Shown here: one piece after another, positions 3,733-46,321 of the stretch
How the letters are laid out: every line of letters begins with the position of its first letter
How positions within the stretch are numbered: the stretch's first letter is position 1
Origin: a virus
Virus record (IMG/VR): IMGVR_UViG_3300047319_000185
Span: 32,001-96,000 of that record
Strand: one strand, 5' to 3'
DNA: 64,000 nt
Translations under genes and position numbers: made by a program
The notes under the pieces: generated by a model
Told to the model about the DNA's origin: nothing
The model's database searches: none
The model's input: only the letters and a program-made list of their open reading frames with translations

Positions 3733-4152
3733 TTAACCGTTACCTGCTAGAGTAACGTCCTTGACGGTTCCACCAACTTCAACAGTAACCATGTTGGCAG
3801 CCGTAGAAGCTGCTGAACCCTGAAGCAATGGAGAATAGTTTACATTGACTGCTGCCACACCATCATTCGCATTACCTGTAACAGGCTGAACAGACAGAAC
3901 CTTTAGACCAGGTTCATACAGGTTCAACTGCTGCGTTACAAGAGCGGATAGTTCTGTGGCAATAAAAGCATTATTGGGATCGAATAGAAGCTTTGACAAA
4001 GGCAATCCCATTTGGGCACGCATAGCTCGCTGGCCAACTTCAGTAGAAATAATAGCATCTACTCTCTGCTGAACTTGTGCACTGTTATCAGTCTGTATAG
4101 ACACGGCACCATTCTGAAGAACAGTGAACGGAATTGAAATTTGTGAACCCAT
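3733..4152 (-). CDS. Baseplate wedge subunit (gp25/gpW family)
   Basis: ISIPF...T..GQR.MR...G...LLFDP...YEP motif. Confidence 0.9.
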   Translation of the reverse strand: MGSQISIPFTVLQNGAVSIQTDNSAQVQQRVDAIISTEVGQRAMRAQMGLPLSKLLFDPNNAFIATELSALVTQQLNLYEPGLKVLSVQPVTGNANDGVAAVNVNYSPLLQGSAASTAANMVTVEVGGTVKDVTLAGNG

Positions 4153-4820: not shown

Positions 4821-6039
4821 AGATAGACGCTCCTAAGTTAGATGACTTCCAAGTTCCGCCTACCAAGACTGATGGGACAGACTGTGATGTTGCAGCCGTC
4901 TGCGCAATGTTGGTAGTCACTGCTGTGTGTATCTGGTCTCTCTCTAATTGTGTACTCATCATATATGTAGAAGTGACATGACTTCCATTAGGAGAAGGTA
5001 GTTCCAGTGTATGCGTAACACCATGTACCAACCATAGACCCTCTTCATCACTTGGAAGAGAATTACCTATAAGATTTACCAGAGTATTCGGCTTGACATG
5101 AGAGTCTCCCCACAGATCACTGTCCGCAGTATTCCAGTAAAGATTGTTATTGGCATCTGCTGCTGCCTTCTGTGCAGCCTCATAGTAGGACTCAGCAGGA
5201 GCTGTGGTGTAGTACTTAGTTATTGTAGGTACGTTCAGAACGCCACCAGAAGCATTAGTAACGTTGGCTGTAGAAGTAGCCTGTACCAGATTTGCGGTAT
5301 TAGGATTAAGTCCTATAACATTTCTATTGGCTACGATACCTCCATCAGGAGTTATAGTTCCTACAATAGGTTCGAAGGATCTAATAGTATCCCAGATTCC
5401 TGGTGTATTGTATGACCAGAATTGTGGAATGTTTCTTATATTACTTCTATCCAATATCAATTGAGGATTAACAAAGTACAGATCAGTATTGTCTATATAG
5501 AATCTATAACCTATCTCGTCTGCCAACTGGCTTAGGAACTTGAAGTCACTAGTATTCTGTAGACGGTACTGAATAGCTGATGGATAGCTGTGGACAACAG
5601 AGCGGAAACCATTCTGTGTGGCTATAGTTGCTGCGATTGTAGAAGGACTAGTATGCTTCCACGCCACATTCTTGGTAGTCTGCATGACCTGAGAGGTACC
5701 TGTAATGGTGTACTGTACTGTTGTAGTTGTAAGACCATTGTAACCAGGATCGGCACCAGAACGTAGAAGCTTATACGATGCCACATATCCTAGGAATGGA
5801 TATACGAAGTAAGGCTTCATTCCATAGTTGATAGTTACAGGTGTCTGCTCAGGTATATACTGCCAGCTATTTTTCTTATTCTGCGCGACATTCTTTCCTA
5901 CATAAACAACATTGAGTAAAGCAATAGTGTGTGAATTAGTATTCTGAAGGATCTGTACACAAGGAGTGTACTGAGGAACTCTCTGGTTCCCGTTGATAAG
6001 AACTTCAAAGTATGGAACTGATGGAGAAGGATTAAGCAT
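4810..6039 (-). CDS. Baseplate hub protein (gpD/gp27, VgrG-like)
   Basis: Q..SDFKFL..LA..IGY, G.W.V..VTH; synteny; likely start ATG 6039. Confidence 0.85.
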   Translation of the reverse strand: MLNPSPSVPYFEVLINGNQRVPQYTPCVQILQNTNSHTIALLNVVYVGKNVAQNKKNSWQYIPEQTPVTINYGMKPYFVYPFLGYVASYKLLRSGADPGYNGLTTTTVQYTITGTSQVMQTTKNVAWKHTSPSTIAATIATQNGFRSVVHSYPSAIQYRLQNTSDFKFLSQLADEIGYRFYIDNTDLYFVNPQLILDRSNIRNIPQFWSYNTPGIWDTIRSFEPIVGTITPDGGIVANRNVIGLNPNTANLVQATSTANVTNASGGVLNVPTITKYYTTAPAESYYEAAQKAAADANNNLYWNTADSDLWGDSHVKPNTLVNLIGNSLPSDEEGLWLVHGVTHTLELPSPNGSHVTSTYMMSTQLERDQIHTAVTTNIAQTAATSQSVPSVLVGGTWKSSNLGASIYAT

Positions 6040-34197: not shown

Positions 34198-35205
34198 TTA
34201 CTCTGCTTCTGGGCGTACTAAATCCCATACCTTATTGGCAATATCCTTGTTATCCAATAATGCGAACAAAAGACCTGCATTAGCGCTGTCCTTCACATAA
34301 AGAGCAAACTCCTTACGCGTGGCAACCCCTTGAAAGTAAAGCTCTACCGCATGAAACTCTGCACTGATTGTAGTATAGGTATCCCAATAGGCATCAAAGA
34401 TTACCTGGTAAGTAGAGCGTAACCACTCATGCCATTCATCAGGAACGATACTGCATAGTTCCTCTAAGGTCTTGCCTTCCTTCATATTCTCCCAGATCCG
34501 ACGCTTTGTCAAACCTGTCACGATCTTGTGTAAAAGTACATAGTCCTCTTGCTTCAGCTTGATCCTGTAGTCCAGATCGGGGAAGTAGATTACGTAGCCT
34601 TCTGCATTAGGCCTAGGAACGGCTTCTATGGCCTCTCTGAGCGTCTTGTAGGGGAAGGTAGTAGTCTTGGGACCATACCACTCTTCTACGTCCTTAGCGG
34701 GGCGTACAGAGCCTGTTATGGCGTTACGTGCAGCCAAGAGGACCAAGTCTTCCTGATCCCCATAATTCAGAACGATACGGTTACCTGGATAGATGATCTC
34801 TACCAGATAGGTCTCCTCATGCCACAGATCAAGCTTGTAACCCTTGTGTGCAGTATTCAAAAACTTGGTTGCCCATATTGCCTGATCTGAAACAAAGGAA
34901 CCACGAGTAGCTACATACCAATTATTATGGTACTCAAAGATGATACCTAATGAACCGTCCATCTTGTCGGTTACTTCAACTCGGTAGCTATCCAGTAGAC
35001 AGTGGTCATCAGTCTCTTGTCCGTAATTCAGGAACTTGTCAAAAGGTCGGGCAATAACATTCAACTTATCATCAATAATGAGACCACGACACTGTCTGGT
35101 TACTTTATTCCACTCGTTGTCAAACTGAGCCTTCTCTGTATAGTTCACGATACTAAGAGGTAAAGTGGGGTGCTTATTAACCCTAATATACTTGTCAATT
35201 AGCAT
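34198..35205 (-). CDS. RNA ligase, T4 Rnl1 family
   Basis: CRGLI...ARPF.KF.N, KMDGSLG, ATRGSF.S.Q, EII...NRIV, EGYV, K.K..DY. Confidence 0.95.
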   Translation of the reverse strand: MLIDKYIRVNKHPTLPLSIVNYTEKAQFDNEWNKVTRQCRGLIIDDKLNVIARPFDKFLNYGQETDDHCLLDSYRVEVTDKMDGSLGIIFEYHNNWYVATRGSFVSDQAIWATKFLNTAHKGYKLDLWHEETYLVEIIYPGNRIVLNYGDQEDLVLLAARNAITGSVRPAKDVEEWYGPKTTTFPYKTLREAIEAVPRPNAEGYVIYFPDLDYRIKLKQEDYVLLHKIVTGLTKRRIWENMKEGKTLEELCSIVPDEWHEWLRSTYQVIFDAYWDTYTTISAEFHAVELYFQGVATRKEFALYVKDSANAGLLFALLDNKDIANKVWDLVRPEAE

Positions 35206-35425
35206 CTTCCGATAGAGACTCATCGGCATCAATCCTGAAAGCTTCGTCATACTCCTTCTCCAGGTCTATTACAGCCTCACAATTGCATCCACACTGTCCA
35301 TCAGGAAGTGGTGGAGTATATTCAGGATGACCTTCCCACTCATCATCACTATCCCACCATACGTGAGGCTCAAGATTGTGATGACCAAATTTGCAGCCCC
35401 AACAAGTTGAGTAGCAGATTATCAT
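35195..35425 (-). CDS. Small Cys/His-rich acidic protein
   Basis: CxxC..GHH...CxCxC; GAGG RBS. Confidence 0.55.
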   Translation of the reverse strand: MIICYSTCWGCKFGHHNLEPHVWWDSDDEWEGHPEYTPPLPDGQCGCNCEAVIDLEKEYDEAFRIDADESLSEDAN

Positions 35426-35577: not shown

Positions 35578-35606
35578 GCCGAAGCTAAACAGAGCATTTA
35601 GTGGAG

Positions 35607-35690
35607 TGGATGCCGAGGGACTTGAACCCCCAGAGTCCGAAGACGATCGGGTTACAGCCGATGGCGCTGCCAATTACGCTTTAGACATCC
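35607..35690 (-). tRNA. tRNA-Tyr(GTA)
   Basis: Cloverleaf; loop CTGTAAC; long variable arm. Confidence 0.9.
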
Positions 35691-35794
35691 ATTGGTACCC
35701 GAGCCAGTCCCTGTCCTTCCTCATTATATAGAGGCGACTAGGGCATCGAATACATTCTCTACGAGGTGGATTTTTATTTACGTAGGACCTTTTG

Positions 35795-35868
35795 TCCAGC
35801 CGACGGGATTCGAACCCGCGTCACTCGGGTCACAGCCAAGTATGATAACCAACTACACTACGGCGGGG
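35795..35868 (-). tRNA. tRNA-His(GTG)
   Basis: CTTGG-CTGTGAC-CCGAG; T arm GGTTCGAATCC. Confidence 0.85.
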
Positions 35869-35881
35869 ATTATTTACAACG

Positions 35882-35953
35882 TACGAGTACCAAGAGTTGA
35901 ACTTGGGACTAGATTTTATCAGAATCTCGTGATAACCGTTTCACCACACTCGC
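35882..35953 (-). tRNA. tRNA-Ile(GAT)
   Basis: AGATT-CTGATAA-AATCT. Confidence 0.88.
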
Positions 35954-35954
35954 A

Positions 35955-36263
35955 TTATTCAAGACCAGATATGATTTCCTTTATGAATGCCTTAGGCTTA
36001 GCACCTACGACATACTTAATGATACTGCCCTTGTGGAACAAAAGCATAGTGGGTATAGATGAGATATCGTATCTCTTTGTCAGTTCTGGATTCTCATCCG
36101 CATTGACCTTTACTACATCTAGCCAGTCGTTCTCTTCTGCTATTGATTCTAGCACAGGAGCCATCATCTTGCAAGGGTTGCACCAGGTGGCCCAGAACTC
36201 TACAAAAACTGGCTTCTCAGATTCAAGTACCTCTGAGAATGTATCAGTAGTAATATCTCTCAC
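35955..36263 (-). CDS. trxA: Thioredoxin
   Basis: EFWATWCNPCK, IPT, VGA.PK. Confidence 0.93.
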   Translation of the reverse strand: MRDITTDTFSEVLESEKPVFVEFWATWCNPCKMMAPVLESIAEENDWLDVVKVNADENPELTKRYDISSIPTMLLFHKGSIIKYVVGAKPKAFIKEIISGLE

Positions 36264-36287
36264 TATTCCCTCTTTCTTTTATTCACG

Positions 36288-36362
36288 TATCCCAGGCAGG
36301 GCTCGAACCTGCATATCTCCTGTATATAAGACAGGGGCCGTCACCAATTTGGCTACTGGGAC
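36288..36362 (-). tRNA. tRNA-Ile(TAT)
   Basis: CCTGT-CTTATAT-ACAGG; canonical D and T arms. Confidence 0.88.
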
Positions 36363-36452
36363 ATTACATGCATTTAGTTGGCAGCCATTTCCCACTACAG
36401 GCGGTACTGTGTTGCTATCCCTTAGCCAACGGGGTTATGCATGAACCATACG

Positions 36453-36535
36453 TGGAAGATAAAGGAATCGAACCCTCAGGCTTTCACACCTGGCACGGTT
36501 TTCAAGGCCGTTTCGCACCCTGTGCGCTATCTTCC
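36453..36535 (-). tRNA. tRNA-Ser(TGA)
   Basis: Loop CTTGAAA; long variable arm; compact D arm. Confidence 0.82.
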
Positions 36536-36547
36536 GTTATTGGATAG

Positions 36548-36644
36548 CTGATAAAACACTAGGGGAATCGAACCCCAGACTCTATCCGTAGTCCCCAGGA
36601 CAACATTCCTGGCGCTGGTGCCTCCAGCTTTAGCTTAATATCAG
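36548..36644 (-). ncRNA. Non-canonical tRNA-like RNA (no 7-nt anticodon loop, extended acceptor stem)
   Basis: Four hairpins ending in GGGG-TTCGATT-CCCC, closed by CTGATA/TATCAG. Confidence 0.6.
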
Positions 36645-36647
36645 GAG

Positions 36648-36734
36648 CGGAAGATAGGAGATTCGAACTCCTGAGGGGATGGATACCCTGCTGCCTTTCC
36701 AAGACAGTGCACTAGACCGCTATGCGAATCTTCC
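36648..36734 (-). tRNA. tRNA-Ser(GGA)
   Basis: CTGTC-TTGGAAA-GGCAG; long variable arm. Confidence 0.9.
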
Positions 36735-36737
36735 AAG

Positions 36738-36817
36738 CGGAAGGCAGAGTACTCGAAACTCCAGCCGTTAAACTGAACGGATTAGCAATCCGTCTGCCCA
36801 CCTCGGGCTTACCTTCC
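36738..36817 (-). tRNA. tRNA-Ser(GCT)
   Basis: ACGGA-TTGCTAA-TCCGT; compact D arm. Confidence 0.82.
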
Positions 36818-36821
36818 AGAG

Positions 36822-36896
36822 AGCGTATAGGGAGAGTCGAACTCCTAAGTAGCAGTTTTGCAGACTGCCCCCGCGCCCTGCGAGTTAACTCTACGC
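36822..36896 (-). tRNA. tRNA-Cys(GCA), atypical (possible 8/4 fold)
   Basis: GCAGT-CTGCAAA-ACTGC; U73. Confidence 0.8.
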
Positions 36897-36899
36897 GCA

Positions 36900-37073
36900 T
36901 TAATCAATAATCACAACTTCACTGTAGCTAAGACGATATGTCTTAATCTTATCCCCATCCATCTTGGCAGTACACCAAGTTGACTCACTTCGGATAATTC
37001 TGCCTTCTTTACCGAATGCGTTACTACGAGGGTTCGTAACCTTGATCCTAGTACCTTCTTTGTTCTTACCCAC
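36900..37073 (-). CDS. 57-aa KOW/SH3-like miniprotein
   Basis: Below ORF-track cutoff. GGAGG RBS + GTG; MGKNKEGTRIKVTNPRSNAFGKEGRII...SYSEVVIID. Confidence 0.65.
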   Translation of the reverse strand: MGKNKEGTRIKVTNPRSNAFGKEGRIIRSESTWCTAKMDGDKIKTYRLSYSEVVIID

Positions 37074-37088
37074 AGTTTGCCTCCGTGT

Positions 37089-37232
37089 TTAAAGAAACTC
37101 TACTTCGGACTTCTTGTAGTAAAGCGTATCCTTGCCTATCTTAACAAGAACTTGGTCATCCAGCAAATGGACAACTACGCCTCTCTTGCCCGCATTCTTA
37201 CCCACAAGAATAAGGACATGTCTGTCAGCCAC
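37089..37232 (-). CDS. 47-aa KOW-motif miniprotein
   Basis: AAGGAG RBS + GTG; MADRHVLILVGKNAGKRGVVV...YKKSEVEFL. Confidence 0.7.
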   Translation of the reverse strand: MADRHVLILVGKNAGKRGVVVHLLDDQVLVKIGKDTLYYKKSEVEFL

Positions 37233-37254
37233 TATATTTCTCCTTGTTTGAAAG

Positions 37255-37333
37255 TGGAGATAGGGGGAGTCGAACCCCCGCTCCTAGCTATTCCGCGTGC
37301 GGTTTCAAAGCTAGTCGAATCCAGATAATCCCC
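37255..37333 (-). ncRNA. Minimal tmRNA: tRNA-like domain only, no mRNA-like domain
   Basis: GGGGATTATCTGGATTCGAC-TAGCT...AGCTAG-GAGC-GGGGGTTCGACTCCCCC-TATCTCCA; G3.U70, A73, no D stem. Confidence 0.8.
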
Positions 37334-37414
37334 ATAAATGCACAGGCACCAAGCCTCTGTGCTCCCAGGTCCACGAATAACATAACCATCTCCTAAGAGA
37401 CCCTGGCCCTTACG

Positions 37415-37485
37415 TACCCAATGACGGAGCTGCCCCGCCTACTGCTCTTTGTAAGAGAGCTATGATCCTGTTTCACCAATCGGGC
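37415..37485 (-). tRNA. tRNA-Val(TAC), atypical T loop
   Basis: GCTCT-CTTACAA-AGAGC; T loop GGCAGCT. Confidence 0.78.
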
Positions 37486-37518
37486 AAACACCCTTTCGGG
37501 CGATATTACTACTATATC

Positions 37519-37725
37519 TTAAAACAACTTAGTTGGAGTAAACATATCAGCAGGAAGAGTTTCAGACTTCACATGGTTTCCTGCCCAGGTAATATCTACT
37601 ACTAGGTTACCATGGTCGTCTATATACTCGTCACTATTTGCATGAGCCTTACTATTACGTGGACCCCACAGAGAATCTCCTGCTTGAATCTCGTTGCGTT
37701 TCTTTCCGAACAAGAATCCCATCAT
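37519..37725 (-). CDS. Hypothetical protein
   Basis: GGAGG RBS. Confidence 0.55.
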   Translation of the reverse strand: MMGFLFGKKRNEIQAGDSLWGPRNSKAHANSDEYIDDHGNLVVDITWAGNHVKSETLPADMFTPTKLF

Positions 37726-37740
37726 TGCCTCCTTTTGGCG

Positions 37741-37813
37741 TGCGCCTGGAGGGACTCGAACCCCCAACCTAACGGGTAGAAACCGTTTGCTCTATCCTTT
37801 GAGCTACAGGCGC
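37741..37813 (-). tRNA. tRNA-Arg(TCT)
   Basis: AACGG-TTTCTAC-CCGTT; canonical. Confidence 0.93.
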
Positions 37814-37836
37814 AGTGCCCTTTCGGGCGGTACTAC

Positions 37837-38307
37837 CTAATCCCACCAACCGTACCAAACATACTTGGAGTCAGTGTAGATGTCAATCTCATCCCAGTCC
37901 AAATCGCTGATCAGAGCTGTGTGAAGCTGTTGCTTAACCTTACCGCGAACTGCACTGTTGGTCAAGCGCTTGTAACTCTTGTGACTGTTCCAGTTTTCTG
38001 GGTAGTACTGAAGGTATGTGTAGCAGTTCTTGTCAGCAAGCTTACCCTCATTAGTATCCGGGCGAGGATAACGAAGACGCCAACTGGAAGGAGTTGTTTC
38101 AGGTACTTCAAGAGTACACTCTACAGTCTCACTCCAACGACGGTACAAGGGTCTGATACGGGTAGTTCCCTTAGCCCAGTAGGGTTCGTACTCCTCTTCC
38201 CCGATCTGTTCCTTGAGAACTACGTTGTGGTTGTGTGTGACCCTTACAGGCCCTCTGGGATCATTGTTCTGAACCCATGTAGGACGAGTATTATAAGTGC
38301 GAGACAT
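37837..38307 (-). CDS. Hypothetical basic protein
   Basis: GGAGG RBS. Confidence 0.6.
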   Translation of the reverse strand: MSRTYNTRPTWVQNNDPRGPVRVTHNHNVVLKEQIGEEEYEPYWAKGTTRIRPLYRRWSETVECTLEVPETTPSSWRLRYPRPDTNEGKLADKNCYTYLQYYPENWNSHKSYKRLTNSAVRGKVKQQLHTALISDLDWDEIDIYTDSKYVWYGWWD

Positions 38308-38415
38308 ACCAACCTCCGATAGTGCTAGAAGTTAAGCCAGTATATCGTTACTGACGGAACGTCGATGTCCACCATTTTGTGGGGAGAAATAGTCATCGAA
38401 TTTATGCAACTCCCG

Positions 38416-38487
38416 TACGGCTAGAGGGATTCGAACCCCCGACAACGGCTTCGTAGGCCGGTATGTTATCCTCTACACCATAGCCGT
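38416..38487 (-). tRNA. tRNA-Arg(ACG)
   Basis: Loop CTACGAA; canonical. Confidence 0.9.
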
Positions 38488-38898
38488 AGGACCAGTCCAC
38501 CAGCCAAACTGCTCAAAGGTTTTTATCCTATGGCATTTTACGCACAGTACCTGGCATTTATCTATCTCAGCTTGAACAACCGTAATCTTAGAGGTGTGTT
38601 TAGCTGCATCACTAATGTTAAACAATTTGGTAGAAGGATCAAGATGATCAAACTCTAGCACACGTGGGTCAATTTCTCCACATTGTACACAAGGATTATT
38701 AAGTAGGTATCTCCAGATGTATTCTCGCATGATCTGTAGATATTTTAGATCATTCTTCCTAGCCTTGTCAATGTAGTATTGCTTATTAGACGTATAGTGC
38801 TCCCTGTTGTATTGATTGTGGCAGGGCTTACACATTGAACTTCTAGAAGCAAACTCACTTAAGGACTTTTCTATGTTGCACTTTCTGCATGTCTTCAT
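38473..38898 (-). CDS. HNH endonuclease
   Basis: CxxC...LEFDH...C.VLC..CH..KT; overlaps tRNA-Arg 5' end. Confidence 0.88.
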   Translation of the reverse strand: MKTCRKCNIEKSLSEFASRSSMCKPCHNQYNREHYTSNKQYYIDKARKNDLKYLQIMREYIWRYLLNNPCVQCGEIDPRVLEFDHLDPSTKLFNISDAAKHTSKITVVQAEIDKCQVLCVKCHRIKTFEQFGWWTGPTAMV

Positions 38899-38925
38899 GC
38901 TATTAATCATAGCATAGGTTCGTAG

Positions 38926-39438
38926 CTACTTCTTCAATCCTAGCAGATACTTTCTCAACTTACCAGGTGTAACCAGGTATGGTTCCCTGTCTGTCAAAGT
39001 ATAACCCACTTCATCATAGTCCTCAGAAACTAGCTGAGAACAGATAAGGTGCTTTGAATCAAGGACTCTCTTGGTAACTCCTGGAGCCTTGATGTGAAAA
39101 CGATACATCGAAATCGCCAGGTAGTCAAGGAAGCTGTACTTTACTCCTACTTGCCCGACTGCTCTGTTAACTATAGTAGTACGCTGGTCATCTGTCAACT
39201 GAACCAGACCTGTTGACCAGAGGATACTGCGTCCATCATACTCACTCAGTTGGGATATACAAGCCCCACCAGGTTCAGCCTCTACGATCTGACCGTTACC
39301 GATATAGATAAAGGCATGTTCATAGTTGGAGAACCCATCTCCATTCAACCACTGTCCGAAGCGTATTAACGCTCCTACACCACCAGCAATGGATACAAGT
39401 CCGAAGTCTCCTGGTAACGGAGTTACACTATCAATCAT
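38926..39438 (-). CDS. Permuted papain-like NlpC/P60 protein (YiiX/YaeF family)
   Basis: PGD...H.FIY.G.G..VEA...G..Y...ICSQLV...VTP. Confidence 0.85.
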   Translation of the reverse strand: MIDSVTPLPGDFGLVSIAGGVGALIRFGQWLNGDGFSNYEHAFIYIGNGQIVEAEPGGACISQLSEYDGRSILWSTGLVQLTDDQRTTIVNRAVGQVGVKYSFLDYLAISMYRFHIKAPGVTKRVLDSKHLICSQLVSEDYDEVGYTLTDREPYLVTPGKLRKYLLGLKK

Positions 39439-39588
39439 CACACTTCTCCACATGAACTCTCAAAGCCACATTAGCATCATGCTCAGTGGGAAATGGACCT
39501 TCTACATGCTTACGTTTGTCACTACACTGATGGGAGTATGCCCAACCTCTATTAGCCTTATATACCATTTTATTCTCCTTATTATACG

Positions 39589-39660
39589 TACCCCCCGTGG
39601 GAATCGAACCCACTACTCGACGTTTAAAAGACGCCTTGTCAACCGGAGACACTGAGGGGC
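39589..39660 (-). tRNA. tRNA-Lys(TTT)
   Basis: GGCGT-CTTTTAA-ACGTC. Confidence 0.83.
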
Positions 39661-39687
39661 ATAAGGCCATTTCTGGCCCGTTTTACT

Positions 39688-39984
39688 TTAATCAATCTGC
39701 CAGCTAGTCTGACAGTCAGCGCAAGTACCATAATGGCCTCTAGCGCCACGAGAGACCGGTAGAATAGTTCCAAGACCACCAATAATCTTGCCTGTGAAAA
39801 GATTGGTGTTATGGTCTCCACGTCTATCTCTTGGACAGTCAACAAGTTCCCCTGTTGACCCACCAGGAGAATTCCTGGTAAGATTACGCTTTTCCTGACC
39901 ATTCTTCTTGTAGTAACGCGCAGCATGGTCATTAACATCAAACGGCTTACGAGGTTCTGGCTCTTTCTTACCAAACAAACTCAC
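39688..39984 (-). CDS. Zn-ribbon-like protein
   Basis: CP....DHNT.LFTG...SRG..G.Y.TC.DC..W. Confidence 0.6.
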   Translation of the reverse strand: MSLFGKKEPEPRKPFDVNDHAARYYKKNGQEKRNLTRNSPGGSTGELVDCPRDRRGDHNTNLFTGKIIGGLGTILPVSRGARGHYGTCADCQTSWQID

Positions 39985-40250
39985 GATGCAGGATTTCCCT
40001 TCTTATCAGTAAGCTGCCATGCACAGCCGCAGTCGTTACAGGTCATATACGTACCCTTGTCTCCACGAGATGTACAGAGAAGTGGGTATACCTTTGTTCC
40101 ATCAGACTGCTGCTTATAACCACAAGTTATCATACCTGTGAAGAGATGGGTATTATGGTCTCGTTTGCCACTAGGACAAGGAGGACTGGAATTGAATACC
40201 GATCCACCCTTATATACAAACGCCTTAATGGTATCACCTAGAAAACTGAT
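39981..40250 (-). CDS. Paralog of 39688-39984 starting at an ATC codon
   Basis: GGAGG-CAAACT-ATC; same CP..DHNT.LFTG..SRG..TC.DC..WQ motif; GTGA coupling. Confidence 0.6.
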   Translation of the reverse strand: MSFLGDTIKAFVYKGGSVFNSSPPCPSGKRDHNTHLFTGMITCGYKQQSDGTKVYPLLCTSRGDKGTYMTCNDCGCAWQLTDKKGNPAS

Positions 40251-40279
40251 AGTTTGCCTCCTATAGTTTTTATATAACG

Positions 40280-40352
40280 AGCCTTATCAGGGAGTCGAAC
40301 CCTGTCTCTCTCCGTACCAAGGAGAAGTGCTAACCATAGTCACTAATAAGGC
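40280..40352 (-). tRNA. tRNA-Thr(GGT)
   Basis: TCTCC-TTGGTAC-GGAGA. Confidence 0.9.
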
Positions 40353-40463
40353 ATAACAGATTGAGTCTCTAGAGTTCCGTTTAACGGTGCCCTCTCTCTG
40401 CTTTCTTGTATGAAATCCAGCCCTGTGCTCCGGACGCTCTTTGCCCTTCATTCATACAATACG

Positions 40464-40534
40464 TACTCCGCCAGGGACTCGAACCCTGATCCCCAGATTA
40501 AGAGTCTGGTGCATCACCTTAATGCTTGCAGAGC
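40464..40534 (-). tRNA. tRNA-Lys(CTT)
   Basis: CCAGA-CTCTTAA-TCTGG. Confidence 0.9.
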
Positions 40535-40660
40535 ATGTGAGTAGTTCTCGTAACACTACACCGTAGACGTTTACTGAAGCCGATATCTATGGTTCATGTT
40601 AATTATTGGACTCAAAGTCTTCAGTTACCGGAAATCCGTGACTCCTACTCAAAGCCATTG

Positions 40661-40732
40661 TGGAGCTACGGGGATTCGAACCCCGAATTCCTGCTTGCAA
40701 AACAGGCGTGTTGCCACTAACACTATAGCCCC
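40661..40732 (-). tRNA. tRNA-Ala(TGC)
   Basis: Loop TTTGCAA; G3.U70. Confidence 0.92.
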
Positions 40733-40901
40733 AATGTGCCGTAAGGAGACCCCACTATCTCTGCGTGAGGTCACCAGGATGAGCCTTAGCCGAGAGATAT
40801 TACGCATATCTCATCCCAGTAGGTTCCCTTACTTGCGCGCCTTACCCTTAGCGTTTGCGCTTCCCTGATGTAGTCTAGCTTAGCAGATCAGGCTCTAAGA
40901 G

Positions 40902-41303
40902 TCAATCTCGCCAGACCCAGCCAGATCGGTGTACTTCAGCATCACGTTCATGCTTCTCGATCTCATCTGCTGGAATTACCAGAATGTCATCCTGTAGCAG
41001 ATACTGCTCCAACGTAGTATACGTATAGGTATAGCTTCCGAATATGCGTGCAGATTCGATATACTCGTTACCTTCATAGCCGCACCCACGCTCATAAGCA
41101 GTAGCTTCTCTCAAGGAGTCGCTTTGAGTAATGGAATAGTCTTCACCACAGCAAGAACACGTTACGTTATTCGGGTCATGGCCAAAACGGCTGTAGAAGA
41201 CAGAGGTAGCTTGATTCTCTGGAGCCTCAATGTAGATGTACTGATATGGAGACTCCTTGGTTCCACCACCAGAATGCATATCCATAAACTGTGTCCACAC
41301 CAT
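40902..41303 (-). CDS. Hypothetical phage protein
   Basis: GGAGG RBS; FMDMHSGG...CSCCG. Confidence 0.65.
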   Translation of the reverse strand: MVWTQFMDMHSGGGTKESPYQYIYIEAPENQATSVFYSRFGHDPNNVTCSCCGEDYSITQSDSLREATAYERGCGYEGNEYIESARIFGSYTYTYTTLEQYLLQDDILVIPADEIEKHERDAEVHRSGWVWRD

Positions 41304-41382
41304 ATTGCCTCCTATATCGTGGTACGTCATTAGGTAAAAATAAACTCCACCAGTATTTCTACGGTGGAGAGGATTAAGTTAA

Positions 41383-41491
41383 TGATAGATCGTAGCATAC
41401 CGGACTCGAACCGGTGCGACGGACCAGTAACGATCCGTACTCTACCTCTGAGTTAATACTACGAGACTGAATTGACTGTCTCGACCTATCA
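41383..41491 (-). ncRNA. tRNA-like RNA with canonical D/T arms, abnormal anticodon arm and extra 5' hairpin/outer stem
   Basis: TGATAGGTCG/CGATCTATCA outer stem; ACTC-AGAGGTA-GAGT; ACCGG-TTCGAGT-CCGGT. Confidence 0.7.
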
Positions 41492-41493
41492 AG

Positions 41494-41569
41494 CTCTCAC
41501 GACTGGAATCGAACCAGTAGGGGGACGGTTTAACAGACCGTTGCAACTGCCAATAGCTGCCCCGTGAGA
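41494..41569 (-). tRNA. tRNA-Asn(GTT)
   Basis: ACGGT-CTGTTAA-ACCGT. Confidence 0.85.
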
Positions 41570-41646
41570 ATAAACCCTAACCACAAGGGGAAGGGTGTGT
41601 TATCAGCTCAACAAGAGTATCAGGTACCTCTTCTCTCGTCAAGCAG

Positions 41647-41714
41647 CAGGGTATGTAGGGATTGAACCTACCAAGAAAGCTTTTGGAGAGCGATCTCCTC
41701 CCAGAGGATACCCT
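41647..41714 (-). tRNA. tRNA-Trp(CCA), minimal D arm
   Basis: AGGGTAT/ATACCCT acceptor, loop CTCCAAA, G73. Confidence 0.72.
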
Positions 41715-41761
41715 ATCGCGGTTCCGTTGTGTAATCGGACAACGGTTTCCTAAAACCTGCG

Positions 41762-41845
41762 TAGCCCTTATCGGATTCGAACCGATACGTCACAAGGACA
41801 CTGGTTCCTAAGACCAGCGCGTCTGCCAGATTCCGCCAAAAGGCC
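41762..41845 (-). tRNA. tRNA-Leu(TAG)
   Basis: CTGGT-CTTAGGA-ACCAG; long variable arm. Confidence 0.92.
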
Positions 41846-41850
41846 ATACG

Positions 41851-42276
41851 TTAGCTTATTAAGTTATGGACATAATGAGAAGCTTCATAGTCTGAAGCAG
41901 AGGCATTATGTATTCCGCCATGTCCTCTATGATGCTTACTGCACAAGAACATGAAGTTCTCGTCAGATTCTACCCAAGCCCCGATTTCATCAGGATTTGA
42001 GATACCGGGAAAGTCTCTTTCAAGGTAGGTTAAGTCTACACCCTGCTGCATACTGAATTCAACATGTGCGTGGTGAAGTTCTAGTCCTCCGACACATTCT
42101 GCTGTATCCCCGCCACGTCTCAGCGCGAAATCACAAACTGCTGTGTCTACATGAGTCTTGCGGTAATGGTTAAAATCCTTGTAATGCGGATCATCTGTAC
42201 GAGCTGGGTGAGCAGGAAACGCTACAGTGTAGTGCTTAGTCTCTGCTTGACTGTGTGCGTTTACTATCTTACCCAT
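41851..42276 (-). CDS. His-rich HNH-like protein
   Basis: LELHH...N...LC..HH....GIH. Confidence 0.55.
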   Translation of the reverse strand: MGKIVNAHSQAETKHYTVAFPAHPARTDDPHYKDFNHYRKTHVDTAVCDFALRRGGDTAECVGGLELHHAHVEFSMQQGVDLTYLERDFPGISNPDEIGAWVESDENFMFLCSKHHRGHGGIHNASASDYEASHYVHNLIS

Positions 42277-42296
42277 GTTGCTCCTTGTATGTCAAG

Positions 42297-42369
42297 TAGT
42301 CCTTGTCGGATTCGAACCGACACTGCGCAGGACTTAAATCTGCTGCCTCTACCATTGGGCTAAAGGACC
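42297..42369 (-). tRNA. tRNA-Leu(TAA), bldA-equivalent, short variable arm
   Basis: GCAGA-TTTAAGT-CCTGC; canonical D/T arms; A73. Confidence 0.87.
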
Positions 42370-42467
42370 ATTCGCACAATCCATCTTTTCAGGGTTCAGG
42401 CTTTGTGCTGTGCTAAGTCGGGCTGCCCCTCCATTGCCCTGACTGTGGCTTGCGTTACTTAGCAGTG

Positions 42468-42540
42468 TACTCCAGGTCGGATTCGAACCGACAACTCTTC
42501 GTTTTTGAGACGAAGTCCTCTACCATTGGGATACTGGAGC
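42468..42540 (-). tRNA. tRNA-Leu(CAA), short variable arm
   Basis: TTCGT-CTCAAAA-ACGAA. Confidence 0.88.
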
Positions 42541-42730
42541 ATAAGTGACGATTCCGGATTAGCATCCGGGAGCCACTACACAGGTCTTTAGCTTTTAGTC
42601 GGTTCAATGCTGTACAAGTAGTGTACCCCGGAAGTACCTTTGTTGTAAAGCTGTCCGTGCCAGGAGTTACTGTGCAGAACCTAAAGATGGGTTTGGTAAC
42701 TTATTAGTCCCATCCAACCCATCTAGTTGC

Positions 42731-42820
42731 TTACTTTTGCTCAGTTGCCTTGTACAACTTTACTAAAGCTGTTACAAATAACACAACTGCTGTCGCCTGG
42801 TTAAGCTGCTTTGTGGTCAT
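42731..42820 (-). CDS. 29-aa single-TM peptide
   Basis: GAAAGGAG RBS, 8-nt spacer; MTTKQLNQATAVVLFVTALVKLYKATEQK. Confidence 0.55.
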   Translation of the reverse strand: MTTKQLNQATAVVLFVTALVKLYKATEQK

Positions 42821-42841
42821 GAAGCATACTCCTTTCGTTAT

Positions 42842-43372
42842 CTAGTAGGATATACCTGCTGCGTAACGAAGTCTACGAGCATGTCTTCCTTTCCCTTTGT
42901 TCTTACTTTTGTAAGTATCTAGTTGACTGTCACAGTTAGGACAGACAAGACGAAGATTGCTCCGCCAATTATTTTCTGAATTACCGTCAATATGGTCTAA
43001 CACGAAGACTATAGGAAGTTCATTCCACATAGTTCCATTTAAGCAGATACAGCATTTACTATGCTGCTCAGCAAGGATATATAGACGTATTGGATCATTC
43101 TGACTAGTACCTGGAGCTACTGAACCCTCTGCCAACCACTGATCTAACCTAGTTTTAACTCTATGCGCATTTGCACAGCTAGTAGAGCAATATTTTACTT
43201 GGATGTCATTTAACTCTTTAGTACAGTAAAAACAGCTATCGTAACGAATTTTAGTACCTAAAATCTGATTTCTTCTCACGCCTTGATTATTAACTGTTGC
43301 TGCACAAGAACGTGAACAAAATTTAGGATTTTTAGTTTGGTTTAAACATGATGGATTCTTACAAGTATTCAT
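42842..43372 (-). CDS. HNH endonuclease
   Basis: FCSRSC and YCSTSC repeats; LDHIDGN..NN...NLRLVCPNC. Confidence 0.92.
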   Translation of the reverse strand: MNTCKNPSCLNQTKNPKFCSRSCAATVNNQGVRRNQILGTKIRYDSCFYCTKELNDIQVKYCSTSCANAHRVKTRLDQWLAEGSVAPGTSQNDPIRLYILAEQHSKCCICLNGTMWNELPIVFVLDHIDGNSENNWRSNLRLVCPNCDSQLDTYKSKNKGKGRHARRLRYAAGISY

Positions 43373-43400
43373 AGTGTAAGCATACCATATTCGAACCTAG

Positions 43401-43474
43401 AGCCGGTAGGGGGAATCGAACCCAACCTAAATCCGCTTTACAAGAGCGGTGCATCGCCATTATGCTTTACCGGC
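43401..43474 (-). tRNA. tRNA-Thr(TGT)
   Basis: CCGCT-CTTGTAA-AGCGG. Confidence 0.87.
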
Positions 43475-43481
43475 AAGTGCT

Positions 43482-43511
43482 ACTATATCAGGTTAGTAGC
43501 CAACCTGTCAA
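43482..43511 (-). promoter_or_regulatory. Internal tRNA-cluster promoter
   Basis: TTGACA-N18-TATAGT just upstream of tRNA-Thr. Confidence 0.8.
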
Positions 43512-43546
43512 ACAACAGCGGAAGGAGGAACACTGTTGTCTAACTA

Positions 43547-43834
43547 TTAGGAAGTTCCGGAAGCCGTAACAACCCAGTCTGTGATTGCATTAAGAGTAAA
43601 GTCAATAGGCTTTGCAAAAGCGTTTCCGCTTAGGTACACAGTCCAAAGACCATCTGTTCCACCAGCGCCAGGAGCTACAGGAGCCTGAACAACAGATGTA
43701 ACTGTTGGATAGCCAAGACCAGTAGCTGGAACAGGCTGCACGTAGCAGTGACCGTCAGCAGCAGCTACGAAAGCAACAGCGGTTCCGACAGTCAGAGCAT
43801 TTACTCTAGTTGGTGCGTTATAAGTGATTGCCAT
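43547..43834 (-). CDS. Small Ala/Thr/Val-rich virion-like protein
   Basis: GAAAGG RBS; composition like 26-27 kb genes. Confidence 0.55.
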   Translation of the reverse strand: MAITYNAPTRVNALTVGTAVAFVAAADGHCYVQPVPATGLGYPTVTSVVQAPVAPGAGGTDGLWTVYLSGNAFAKPIDFTLNAITDWVVTASGTS

Positions 43835-43916
43835 TTTTGAGCCTTTCATGAAAGAACTATATTTAGTTCGCTATAGCCCTATTATCGTATCATGAAAGGT
43901 CATTTAATTCTTAACG

Positions 43917-43988
43917 TACCCCCGGAGGGAATTGAACCCTCTCTTCAGGCTTGAAAGGCCAGTGTACTAACCAATATACTACGGGGAC
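43917..43988 (-). tRNA. tRNA-Glu(TTC)
   Basis: Loop CTTTCAA. Confidence 0.88.
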
Positions 43989-44225
43989 AAAAACCCTACC
44001 AGTCCCGGAGAACGGTAGGGAACAATCTCGGCAAGGGAACAGTAGTGCCTGCTTCGAATCAGGGACTGTTGGTGCCTTGCTGAGTATAAATAGTCCTTAG
44101 GGTTACCCATCCCTTAACTACACTGAATGGTTGATCACAGGCAGCTTATCTCATTTCAGCTAGCGAGACCGGATGTGGCTTCAGCTCATCCCGCAATCTC
44201 TTGAGACCTGTGAGGGTAACAAACG

Positions 44226-44299
44226 TACTCCGTACGGGGCTCGAACCCGTAATCTCTTCCTTGAGAGGGAAGTGACTTAACCACTTTGTCCAACGGAGC
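44226..44299 (-). tRNA. tRNA-Glu(CTC)
   Basis: CTTCC-CTCTCAA-GGAAG. Confidence 0.92.
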
Positions 44300-44302
44300 A
44301 TA

Positions 44303-44455
44303 TTACTTATTTCTTAGACTGTCTACTACTTTGCGCTGATCCCTGATCTTTGTGGTCAAGGCCTGTCGTTGTGCACTCTGCTTCACAGTACGCAATTCTT
44401 GCATCATCTCATGAAGTTTGTCAAGTGCGTCCTTGTATTCCTGACTGAAGCCCAT
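44303..44455 (-). CDS. 50-aa helical miniprotein
   Basis: GAGGAG RBS; MGFSQEYKDALDKL... Confidence 0.5.
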   Translation of the reverse strand: MGFSQEYKDALDKLHEMMQELRTVKQSAQRQALTTKIRDQRKVVDSLRNK

Positions 44456-44616
44456 ATTACTTGTGTCTCCTCAGAAGTTCAGTATTGATCTGATCGATTT
44501 CTCGTTCAATGAACTTCTTACGTTGTTTTGACAGTCCACCCTGCTTGATGATGTCCTGTCTTAGTTTTAGATAGCCTTTTAACTGTTCACTTGTTTTAGA
44601 CTCTAAGTGTTCCATG

Positions 44617-44688
44617 CGCCCACGACGGTATTCGAAACCGCCCTTGCAGCTTGACAGGCTACCGTGCTAACCACTACACTACGCGAGC
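44617..44688 (-). tRNA. tRNA-Asp(GTC)
   Basis: GTAGC-CTGTCAA-GCTGC. Confidence 0.88.
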
Positions 44689-44713
44689 AAAGTTGCTTTC
44701 GCAACCGATTAAG

Positions 44714-45022
44714 TTATTCTGGCCAGCTAATATTGGGATACTGCTCAACTGCTGTGCCATCTCGTACTATTACCCTTGACATGTCTGGAGATTCTTCTCC
44801 ATGTCTCAGGACTATCAAGAAGTTGTTAGGATAAGCATATGCTAACTGCTGTAGGTCTGTCAACCAGTCATACCACTTAGCACAGTCATATCCGCTTACT
44901 TGGCCCTCATAATCTTCCCAACCAGGAGATCCCCAGCCATACTGCTTATCAGCGTTGTTGAGAACATCCTTGATATCAGGAATATCTGTATCTACTACTT
45001 CGAAAGTAGAGTAATAACCCAT
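44714..45022 (-). CDS. Hypothetical acidic phage protein
   Basis: GGAGG RBS; MGYY...KWY...GEE..D. Confidence 0.65.
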   Translation of the reverse strand: MGYYSTFEVVDTDIPDIKDVLNNADKQYGWGSPGWEDYEGQVSGYDCAKWYDWLTDLQQLAYAYPNNFLIVLRHGEESPDMSRVIVRDGTAVEQYPNISWPE

Positions 45023-45046
45023 AGTTGCCTCCATAGATTGTAAAAG

Positions 45047-45117
45047 CTCCCCCACCAGGGCTCGAACCTAGACTCCGAGAGCCAAAGGCTCGTGTGCTGC
45101 CATTACACTAAAGGGGA
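45047..45117 (-). tRNA. tRNA-Gln(TTG)
   Basis: Loop CTTTGGC; U1-A72, G73. Confidence 0.87.
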
Positions 45118-45121
45118 AAAG

Positions 45122-45192
45122 CTCTCCAACCTGGATTCGAACCAAGTCCAGCGAATTCAGAGTCCGCGATGCTGCCGTTACACCATTGGAGA
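45122..45192 (-). tRNA. tRNA-Gln(CTG)
   Basis: GCGGA-CTCTGAA-TTCGC. Confidence 0.9.
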
Positions 45193-45267
45193 ATAAGAGG
45201 GTCGCGTATTGGGACAATTCAAACCCAAGAACCAATACCACCTACTCTAGGCGGGAAACCCAGCAAG

Positions 45268-45340
45268 TACCGTATAGGAGACTCGAACTCCTTCGTTCAC
45301 TTTGGAAGAGTGACATGCTGCCATTGAACATCAATACGGC
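45268..45340 (-). tRNA. tRNA-Gly(TCC)
   Basis: TCACT-CTTCCAA-AGTGA. Confidence 0.9.
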
Positions 45341-45353
45341 ATTATTTAATTGT

Positions 45354-45430
45354 TGGTGGCGGAGCTTCGGAATCGCACCGAATTAACCCAGCTTATGAGA
45401 CTGGTCGAGATAACTAACCTCCCGCCCGCA
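45354..45430 (-). tRNA. tRNA-Met(CAT), initiator-like and atypical; encoded CCA
   Basis: Loop CTCATAA; 1:72 mismatch; T loop TGCGATT. Confidence 0.75.
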
Positions 45431-45431
45431 G

Positions 45432-45502
45432 TAGCTGATGACAGAATTGAACTGTCGTTGACGGCTTATGAAACCGTTGTTCTGCCATTGAACTAATCAG
45501 CC
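45432..45502 (-). tRNA. tRNA-Met(CAT)
   Basis: ACGGT-TTCATAA-GCCGT. Confidence 0.88.
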
Positions 45503-45650
45503 ATCGGCTTATTCAGCCATAAAACTTATACTGAGGAGCCGAACTGCGCTACCTCAATCTTCTTACCATCAATAAGCTTCTCTACCTTAGCAGAGGCCTT
45601 AACGGTATTCAAAGGCTTACGCATATCGTCTCCTTCTAGTTGTTGTAAAG

Positions 45651-45723
45651 TGTCCCCGACCGGGTTCGAACCGATGACCTGCGCAGCTTCAATGCGCCGC
45701 TCTACCAACTGAGCTACAGGGAC
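45651..45723 (-). tRNA. tRNA-Phe(GAA)
   Basis: GCGCA-TTGAAGC-TGCGC. Confidence 0.92.
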
Positions 45724-45789
45724 AAACGAGTTACTTACTTGTATTTAGCATCGTATCTATTATGTGATTTGGTGATGTCTATACGTTGA

Positions 45790-46125
45790 TCATAACTCTA
45801 GTTTGCGTATGTGCGTTCGTGTCGCATGACAGTTTGCACATACAAGATCACATTTAGCAACTTCTTCAAGAAGCGCCTTGATAGTACTTATCTTACCTGT
45901 TTCGGACACATTGACAAGTTTAATCTCGTCAGGTCGGTGATCGAACTGCATTACCCAATAAGGATATGCTACAGAGCAATCTAAACAGGGTTGCATATCC
46001 TTTAGCTCAAGAGTGATTCTGCGCATCTCAAGCTTTAAAGCTCTAGACCTTGCATAATACTTCTCTTTGTTAGCTTGGTAATGCTTCTTAGTGTACTCGC
46101 GTTGTTTTTCTTTAGAAAGTGTCAT
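45790..46125 (-). CDS. HNH endonuclease
   Basis: PC.DC...MQFDH...KCDLVCANCH..RT. Confidence 0.88.
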   Translation of the reverse strand: MTLSKEKQREYTKKHYQANKEKYYARSRALKLEMRRITLELKDMQPCLDCSVAYPYWVMQFDHRPDEIKLVNVSETGKISTIKALLEEVAKCDLVCANCHATRTHIRKLEL

Positions 46126-46163
46126 ACTTCATTGTATCAAATCTTTGTTAGAGATTTGAACCG

Positions 46164-46237
46164 TCTAGATGGCAGGATTTGAACCTGCGACCGCCCGAAT
46201 CCAAGTCGGGTACGCTACCAAACTGCGCTACATCTAG
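46164..46237 (-). tRNA. tRNA-Pro(TGG), A37 variant
   Basis: CCCGA-CTTGGAT-TCGGG. Confidence 0.9.
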
Positions 46238-46249
46238 ATTAATACTACG

Positions 46250-46321
46250 TCGGGCACCCGAGAATCGAACTCGGTTTATCCTGTTCCCAAAACAGGCGGA
46301 TTACCATCTTCCTCGTGCCCG
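46250..46321 (-). tRNA. tRNA-Pro(TGG)
   Basis: CCTGT-TTTGGGA-ACAGG. Confidence 0.88.

Follow-up and report, generated by a model that had tools for sequence, protein, structure and literature searches.

Trans-translation is the main pathway of ribosome rescue and protein quality control in bacteria. Among the tmRNAs listed by Hudson, Lau & Williams (2014; PMC4131195) is an entry that reads 'Mycobacterium phage DS6A (TLD only)', which denotes an RNA reduced to the tRNA-like domain (TLD). According to PMC4131195 and PMC11915505, the record of this RNA dates from Mao et al. (2009, RNA Biol 6:355), and an RNA of the DS6A type has been reported to inhibit tmRNA in E. coli, perhaps via titration of SmpB; PMC4131195 adds that inhibition was reported whether or not the RNA could be charged. 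In the 2025 tmRNA database paper, phages account for 79 tmRNA sequences, and just 9 entries overall are 'standard, no CDS' forms; the paper also notes that CDS-less tmRNAs and SmpB are conserved together in mitochondria and in some plastids (PMC11915505). A TLD-only phage tmRNA is not a new kind of RNA, since DS6A provides a precedent from 2009; rather, it is a known but barely studied kind, and we found no paper that describes how broadly the family is distributed in phages.

In this study, we follow up an element at 37255-37333 of the window, by which we mean the whole stretch of DNA that was analysed (64,000 nt; it covers positions 32001-96000 of an IMG/VR virus record of 112,630 bp, rated complete by CheckV). 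The G+C content of the window is 46%. The first-pass annotation of this DNA treated the element as a novelty on the premise that the known phage tmRNAs are full length, a premise contradicted by the DS6A record cited in PMC4131195 and PMC11915505. Its two functional options, acceptance of stalled peptides without a tag and titration of SmpB, are the same as those in the literature.

Structure of the element and comparison with described tmRNAs

The minus strand at this position reads as a TLD-only tmRNA gene of 79 nt, from G1 to the discriminator A (Table 1). Six acceptor pairs are formed, G1-C72, G2-C71, G3·U70, G4-C69, A5-U68 and U6-A67, and the discriminator is A73. The first-pass annotation had correctly read G1-C72, G2-C71, G3·U70 and A73 and had left unmentioned that the seventh pair (7-66) is a U·U mismatch. 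The D-like loop together with C20, which opens helix 2a, provides 13 bases that agree with the Rfam tmRNA consensus GAucuGGaUUCGAC and form the tmRNA signature GG.UUCGAC. The 6-bp helix 2a (CUAGCU/AGCUAG), the perfect T arm and the 19-nt loop, in which the small hairpin CCG-CACG-CGG follows an A-run, can be read directly, as that annotation had described them. The linker is the 5-nt GGAGC, compared with GGAC elsewhere in the family; the gene is not permuted, and it has no encoded CCA, the bases that come next being CUU.

Table 1. Positions of the features discussed in the text (window coordinates unless a phage is named).
Feature	Position	Strand	Basis or remark
T4 Rnl1-type RNA ligase, beside the array	34198-35250	minus	Profile match (PF09511, 58 bits)
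Co-oriented 30-tRNA array holding the mini-tmRNA	35606-46321	minus	ARAGORN and Rfam
Thioredoxin, beside the array	35955-36263	minus	Profile match
ORF, 57 aa	36900-37073	minus	Second small ORF downstream of the mini-tmRNA
ORF, 47 aa, strong ribosome-binding site	37089-37232	minus	Pfam KOW PF00467, 27.7 bits (cut-off 22.3)
TLD-only (tag-less) mini-tmRNA gene	37255-37333	minus	RF00023 54.8 bits; R1 60.7 bits, E 5e-13
Acceptor stem 3' strand UAUCUCC and discriminator A73	37255-37262	minus	Sequence and covariation
T arm GGGGG-UUCGACU-CCCCC	37263-37279	minus	Rfam alignment and fold; pairing perfect
Helix 2a 3' strand AGCUAG	37284-37289	minus	Covariation and fold
19-nt loop in place of the mRNA-like domain	37290-37308	minus	A-rich GAAA and hairpin CCGCACGCGG (37293-37302)
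Helix 2a 5' strand CUAGCU	37309-37314	minus	Pairs with 37284-37289 (MFE fold)
Stemless D-like loop AUCUGGAUUCGA	37315-37326	minus	Rfam tmRNA consensus; GG and CG invariant in alignment A1
Acceptor stem 5' strand GGGGAUU (G1, G2, G3)	37327-37333	minus	Pairs with 37256-37262
Divergent tRNA-Val(UAC) homologue, upstream neighbour of the mini-tmRNA	~37415-37485	minus	Aligns with annotated tRNA-Val(tac) of Alone3, LuckySocke and BRock
Ordinary tRNA-Ala(UGC), separate gene	40660-40732	minus	ARAGORN and Rfam
tRNA with 2-base anticodon call (ta), identity undetermined by ARAGORN	41390-41463	minus	Rfam tRNA 45.3 bits
Divergent mini copy, Jay2Jay KM652554 (L088)	87505-87581		R1
Divergent mini copy, Pepperwood (L164)	86508-86584		R1
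Divergent mini copy, Samisti12 (L165)	87760-87836		R1

When the whole window was searched with the Rfam tmRNA model RF00023, for which the gathering score is 47 bits, the mini-tmRNA was matched at E = 9e-19; on a 106-nt excerpt the score was 47.4 bits, and the alignment ran over model positions 1-372, of the 374 positions 302 being deleted. The two ends of the model are thereby occupied and the positions between them deleted, which is the outcome that the first-pass annotation had predicted and which, being above the cut-off, bears out its description of an unpermuted, TLD-only RNA with the alanine identity set and no mRNA-like domain. The match that it likewise expected with the mt-tmRNA model RF02544 (gathering score 65 bits) did not appear at E<=1 anywhere in the 112.6-kb genome.

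Only 19 nt lie between the two strands of helix 2a, and a resume codon and a tag ORF with its stop are absent. From the GCA of the hairpin, no in-frame stop is encountered ahead of the 3' end. Pseudoknots PK1-PK4 are lacking, a 79-nt RNA being too short to fit them, and so is helix 5. Since the mRNA-like domain is missing, the mRNA half of trans-translation is impossible for this RNA. A short tag ORF was considered, because some relatives have an in-frame UAG after GCA-YGC-GGA, which by eye is missing from the window copy, DS6A and others; the idea was rejected because this UAG belongs to the closing pairs of helix 2a. An identity as a tRNA (RF00005) was rejected as well: no D stem or anticodon arm and no 7-nt anticodon loop can be drawn, ARAGORN makes no call at the element when run on the window, and the tmRNA model wins the clan competition. 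The MFE fold contains the same four helices, with an energy (z = -0.98) that is not exceptional; thermodynamics is therefore uninformative here, and the support for the element comes from homology and covariation. On this evidence, we hold with high confidence that the element is the TLD of a tmRNA.

We located the DS6A element at JN698994 28478-28560 (tmRNA Website tmID 11587), where RF00023 gives 43.2 bits. The DS6A and window elements are both phage-borne, approximately 80 nt long, not permuted and without an encoded CCA; their parts follow in the same order (an acceptor stem with G3·U70 and A73, a stemless GG..UCGAC loop, helix 2a and a T arm), the central A-run and CCGCACGCGG hairpin are common to both, and with this shared layout the AAAACCGCACGCGG core is identical. 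The stem sequences differ throughout, via compensatory changes, and the U·U at pair 7-66 and the GGAGC linker are peculiar to the window copy. DS6A itself is a 60.6-kb temperate mycobacteriophage whose copy stands alone between protein genes, whereas the window phage is 112.6 kb long, has no tyrosine integrase that we could find, carries its copy in a 30-tRNA array, and has nearest named relatives that infect Streptomyces. Because one covariance model (R1, described below) recognizes both and the core is identical, the window RNA belongs to the DS6A subfamily; judged from these sequence comparisons, it is a further, previously unannotated member of the DS6A-type family of TLD-only tmRNAs.

The other described RNAs share less with the element. 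Standard tmRNA (RF00023) shares with it the two terminal segments, 5' and 3', from which the TLD is built, and the tmRNA of phage Jay2Jay (283 nt, tag ANSNVASAYALAA) has similar termini, even the 3' trailer CUUUCAA; unlike standard tmRNA, the window RNA has no resume codon, tag ORF, stop codon, helix 5 or pseudoknots. The mitochondrial tmRNAs of jakobids and oomycetes (RF02544) and the ~65-bp plastid tmRNAs of Mallomonadaceae (PMC11915505) resemble it in having a TLD without a tag frame, but circular permutation is usual in these organelle forms, and their SmpB is encoded in the nucleus. With tRNA-Ala the element shares the G3·U70 and A73 identity set, the 7-bp acceptor stem and the T arm, but not the D stem and the anticodon arm.

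Genomic setting and gene content of the phage

The array that holds the mini-tmRNA also includes an ordinary tRNA-Ala as a separate gene, in agreement with the first-pass annotation. Nearly all of the array tRNAs lack an encoded CCA, according to the 3' ends given by ARAGORN. The upstream neighbour of the element is a divergent tRNA-Val(UAC) homologue for which a cloverleaf can be drawn, with the anticodon loop CUUACAA and with GGCAGCU instead of UUCGAAU as its T loop; it was missed by ARAGORN, and the Rfam tRNA model did not detect it with the threshold relaxed to E<=10. No other candidate for a Val tRNA was seen in the array. In a related rhizosphere strain, the tRNA-Val stretch shows approximately 25 substitutions and several indels, and the adjoining mini-tmRNA has no listed differences.

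The RNA ligase beside the array, together with the phosphoesterase, RNA ligase and Ro-like RNA-binding protein annotated in the same neighbourhood of Alone3, points to an adjoining tRNA-repair module. Two small ORFs begin 22 nt past the 3' end of the mini-tmRNA. The KOW mini-protein encoded by one of them was considered as a conserved partner and rejected: among the loci compared, its homologue occurs only in the near-identical contig L032 and not beside other mini-tmRNAs. Whole-genome searches found no SmpB, no RF-1/ArfB-type domain, no peptidyl-tRNA hydrolase (Pth), no tyrosine integrase, no CCA-adding enzyme and no second or full-length tmRNA, with R1 giving one copy only. Because the phage has no such partner genes, any activity of the RNA must rely on the AlaRS, SmpB, EF-Tu and tRNA-processing enzymes of the host. 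A promoter and terminator scan gave weak consensus hits only; one -35/-10 match is located ahead of tRNA-Arg(UCU), and between that match and the element no terminator was found. No RNA-seq runs containing the locus were listed.

Relatives of the element and covariation of its helices

The closest named relatives of the window phage are the Streptomyces phages Alone3, LuckySocke, BRock, GiJojo and pSt2308, with genomes of approximately 113-116 kb. Megablast of the locus against named phages gave no match, and blastn with the 82-nt element alone gave only T-arm/3'-end matches to full-length phage tmRNAs; the homologues were reached only via degenerate patterns and a covariance model. This model, R1, was built from 12 environmental relatives, with the window element and DS6A left out. 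Each of the five cultured Streptomyces phages contains one strong R1 match (LuckySocke and GiJojo, 80.5 bits each; pSt2308, 77.4 bits; BRock, 73.9 bits; Alone3, 57.9 bits), and none of these homologues is annotated in the GenBank records. DS6A scores 70.3 bits, and the score of the window element is lower than that of most members. In Alone3, LuckySocke and BRock, the match occupies an annotation gap, with tRNA-Val(UAC) just upstream of it and tRNA-Ser(GCU) downstream, which is the arrangement in the window, and no full-length tmRNA is found at this place in any of the five.

Three side observations concern these relatives. In Alone3 (L006 ~4830-4960, minus strand) and LuckySocke (L080 ~3830-3960, minus strand), an unannotated stretch between tRNA-Val and the mini-tmRNA has a tRNA-like 5' segment (GCGCGGUAGCUUAACUGG...) that lies approximately 60 nt from a canonical T arm (GGUCCGGGUUCGAAUCCCGG). 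This stretch, to which nothing in the window clearly corresponds, is possibly a tRNA that is interrupted or unusual in some other way. In BRock (L087 969-1594, minus strand), ARAGORN calls a 626-nt permuted 'tmRNA*' with the tag AARQVLAEL across several tRNA genes and the mini-tmRNA, and this call looks like a false composite set off by the TLD-only element. Streptomyces phages of the genus Samistivirus (BE cluster) have an annotated full-length, tag-encoding tmRNA plus a divergent TLD-only element with R1 scores of 42-43 bits. The divergent copy lies approximately 10 kb upstream of the full-length tmRNA and lacks the UCGAC...GGAC motif; the one record checked, that of Jay2Jay, has no annotation for it and places it right after tRNA-Val(UAC). 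Coruscant has no such R1 match.

Independent sequence data agree on the element. IMG/VR contig L032, from another metagenome, carries an identical copy. A 26.9-kb rhizosphere Logan contig differs from the window at 47 positions and by 6 gaps over 1.1 kb, and among the differences listed none falls within 37252-37333 (7 more are unlisted). In a second rhizosphere run, a Logan contig crosses the entire element with zero differences, and in a third, a contig covers it from 37268 on, again with zero differences. The Logan contigs of other rhizosphere runs showed no joints or insertions at the element. A unique deletion or an assembly collapse, which the first-pass annotation had named as grounds for abandoning its reading, is thus opposed by the five cultured-phage homologues, by L032 and by the independent Logan contigs.

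The wider family was sought in IMG/VR with two degenerate DNA patterns (D-loop plus T-loop; central hairpin plus T-loop), the acceptor stem being left free. These searches gave approximately 45 loci with such elements, and the distinct family sequences, named phages included, number 31. From the first pattern scan, approximately 20 near-identical contigs of one metagenome (L007 etc.) and L011, L017, L022 and L035 were not counted, because they lack the GGG/G3·U70 acceptor stem or have a poor R1 score. The AAACCGCAYGCGG motif of the window element was found in DS6A and in roughly three dozen IMG/VR family members. Approximately half of the family members stand alone, with no tRNA or repair genes near. 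In bacterial genomes, the second pattern matched 66 loci, against approximately 50 expected by chance on a rough estimate, and 5 of the 66 passed R1 (L111, L124, L126, L139 and L157); we draw no conclusion about hosts from these matches because three of the five are on short MAG contigs.

The first-pass annotation had proposed a search for covarying homologues in related phages; the 31 distinct sequences were aligned. A MAFFT alignment (A1) misaligned the 5' ends, and the model-based alignment A4 was used instead. In A4, which is biased to the model structure by construction, 97.0% of cells form a standard pair (shuffled mean 70.6%), 19 of 23 pairs are changed on both sides (shuffled mean 12.8), and the covariation score is 0.660 (shuffled mean 0.153); the observed pairing and covariation values were reached by 0 of 500 shuffles. 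As a control, the 3' partners were slid by 1-3 columns, upon which pairing fell to 36-51% and the covariation score to <=0.13. All 31 sequences have G1-C72, G2-C71 and G3·U70 without exception, and acceptor pairs 4-7 covary freely. Across the family, changes on both sides occur at all 8 modelled pairs of helix 2a, and 4 of the 5 T-arm pairs covary; in total, compensatory changes are present in all four helices. As far as such comparative evidence goes, selection on the RNA maintains both the TLD fold and the AlaRS identity pairs.

These data also bear on whether the element could be a non-functional remnant, i.e., a decayed full-length tmRNA, an attP core derived from a host ssrA, an assembly collapse or a chance match. 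The acceptor mismatch U7·U66 and the silence of ARAGORN are what such a remnant might present. Against it stand the compensatory changes, the homologues at the same place in five cultured phages that have no full-length tmRNA there, the identical copy in L032, the contigs that span the element without joints or insertions, and the Rfam E-value; moreover, the genome search turned up no tyrosine integrase, and of ssrA only the 3' portion would be expected in an attP core. We consider this origin largely refuted and extremely improbable.

The central hairpin raises a different question. From DS6A to the Streptomyces phages, the sequence CCGCAYGCGG and the preceding A-run are themselves kept, and not the pairing alone, while the conservation of this hairpin and of the T-loop is partly forced by the search patterns. 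No tmRNA function is known for this hairpin, and its conservation, together with the adjoining RNA-repair module, would accord with a tRNA-shaped RNA that has another job, either as a decoy or sponge that engages AlaRS, a modification enzyme or a host nuclease, or in partnership with a phage protein that binds via the hairpin. Yet what is conserved (GG.UCGAC loop, GGAC linker, T loop and G3·U70) coincides exactly with the features of the tmRNA TLD, no neighbouring protein is conserved, and about half of the family lies away from any tRNA or repair genes; we regard such a job as quite improbable.

Proposed competition with host tmRNA

We believe that the best explanation overall is a functional phage gene for a tag-less mini-tmRNA that competes with host tmRNA, an explanation that we favour by a narrow measure. 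The identity, structure, conservation and setting described above are observations, and from them we infer a course of events for processing, charging, SmpB binding and phage benefit. The mini-tmRNA would be co-transcribed with the surrounding tRNA array and excised by host tRNA-processing enzymes, and the CCA would be supplied by the CCA-adding enzyme of the host because the phage encodes neither CCA nor such an enzyme. Host AlaRS would then charge the RNA with alanine via the invariant G3·U70 and A73, and host SmpB would bind the elbow of the D-loop and T-loop and helix 2a. With no resume codon, tag frame, stop codon or pseudoknots, the RNA cannot complete trans-translation, and the net effect would be that host tmRNA faces a competitor for SmpB and perhaps for stalled ribosomes as well. 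During infection, fewer of the proteins from stalled ribosomes would be tagged and degraded, presumably to the benefit of the phage. The mini-tmRNA probably interferes with the rescue-and-tagging system of the host; that competition for SmpB and the ribosome is its main function is a view that we hold with confidence and doubt in equal parts.

Several observations fit this proposal poorly. If titration of SmpB does not need charging, as reported for E. coli, it leaves the invariant alanine identity pairs unexplained. The coexistence of a mini copy with a full-length, tag-encoding tmRNA in Samistivirus is awkward for a pure role in shutting down trans-translation. Furthermore, the window copy has the acceptor U·U, the GGAGC linker and an R1 score below most others.

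The first two of these points are better accommodated if the RNA itself performs rescue without a tag. An alanyl-mini-tmRNA with SmpB and EF-Tu would enter the stalled ribosome, take over the nascent chain and add one or several alanines, after which a host factor would release or hydrolyse the peptidyl-RNA; ribosomes would be freed for the phage, and the products would not be marked for proteolysis. The invariance of the AlaRS identity pairs, set within an acceptor stem of which the rest covaries, argues for charging and is explained better in this way than by competition; the co-occurrence in Samistivirus suggests a role besides blocking trans-translation; and the CDS-less tmRNAs of mitochondria and of some plastids show joint conservation with SmpB (PMC11915505), the mitochondrial ones being thought to act in this manner. 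On the other hand, without a stop codon no termination route is known, and the phage has neither an RF-1/ArfB-type domain nor a peptidyl-tRNA hydrolase. In addition, the RNA of the DS6A type inhibited tmRNA in E. coli and did not replace it, chargeable or not, as stated in PMC4131195. We consider rescue of this kind the chief alternative to competition, though a tentative reading and a rather doubtful one.

A more specific proposal is that the charged RNA carries out tag-free rescue or repeated alanine-tailing and that the central hairpin (A-run and CCGCAYGCGG) is a docking site for a putative release factor of the host or the phage. It would explain the invariant alanine pairs, the occurrence of mini and full-length tmRNAs together in Samistivirus, and the linkage to tRNA-Val(UAC) across two phage clusters, and we rate it as unlikely.

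Whichever activity is preferred, the standard workflow of phage annotation is blind to this gene, which ARAGORN misses and which is unannotated in the GenBank records of the five relatives and of Jay2Jay. Through the cultured Streptomyces phages in which the gene is conserved, the function of TLD-only tmRNAs can be approached directly by experiment. A small phage RNA that blocks or hijacks trans-translation would be a compact tool for the takeover of host translation and a lead for inhibitors of tmRNA-SmpB.
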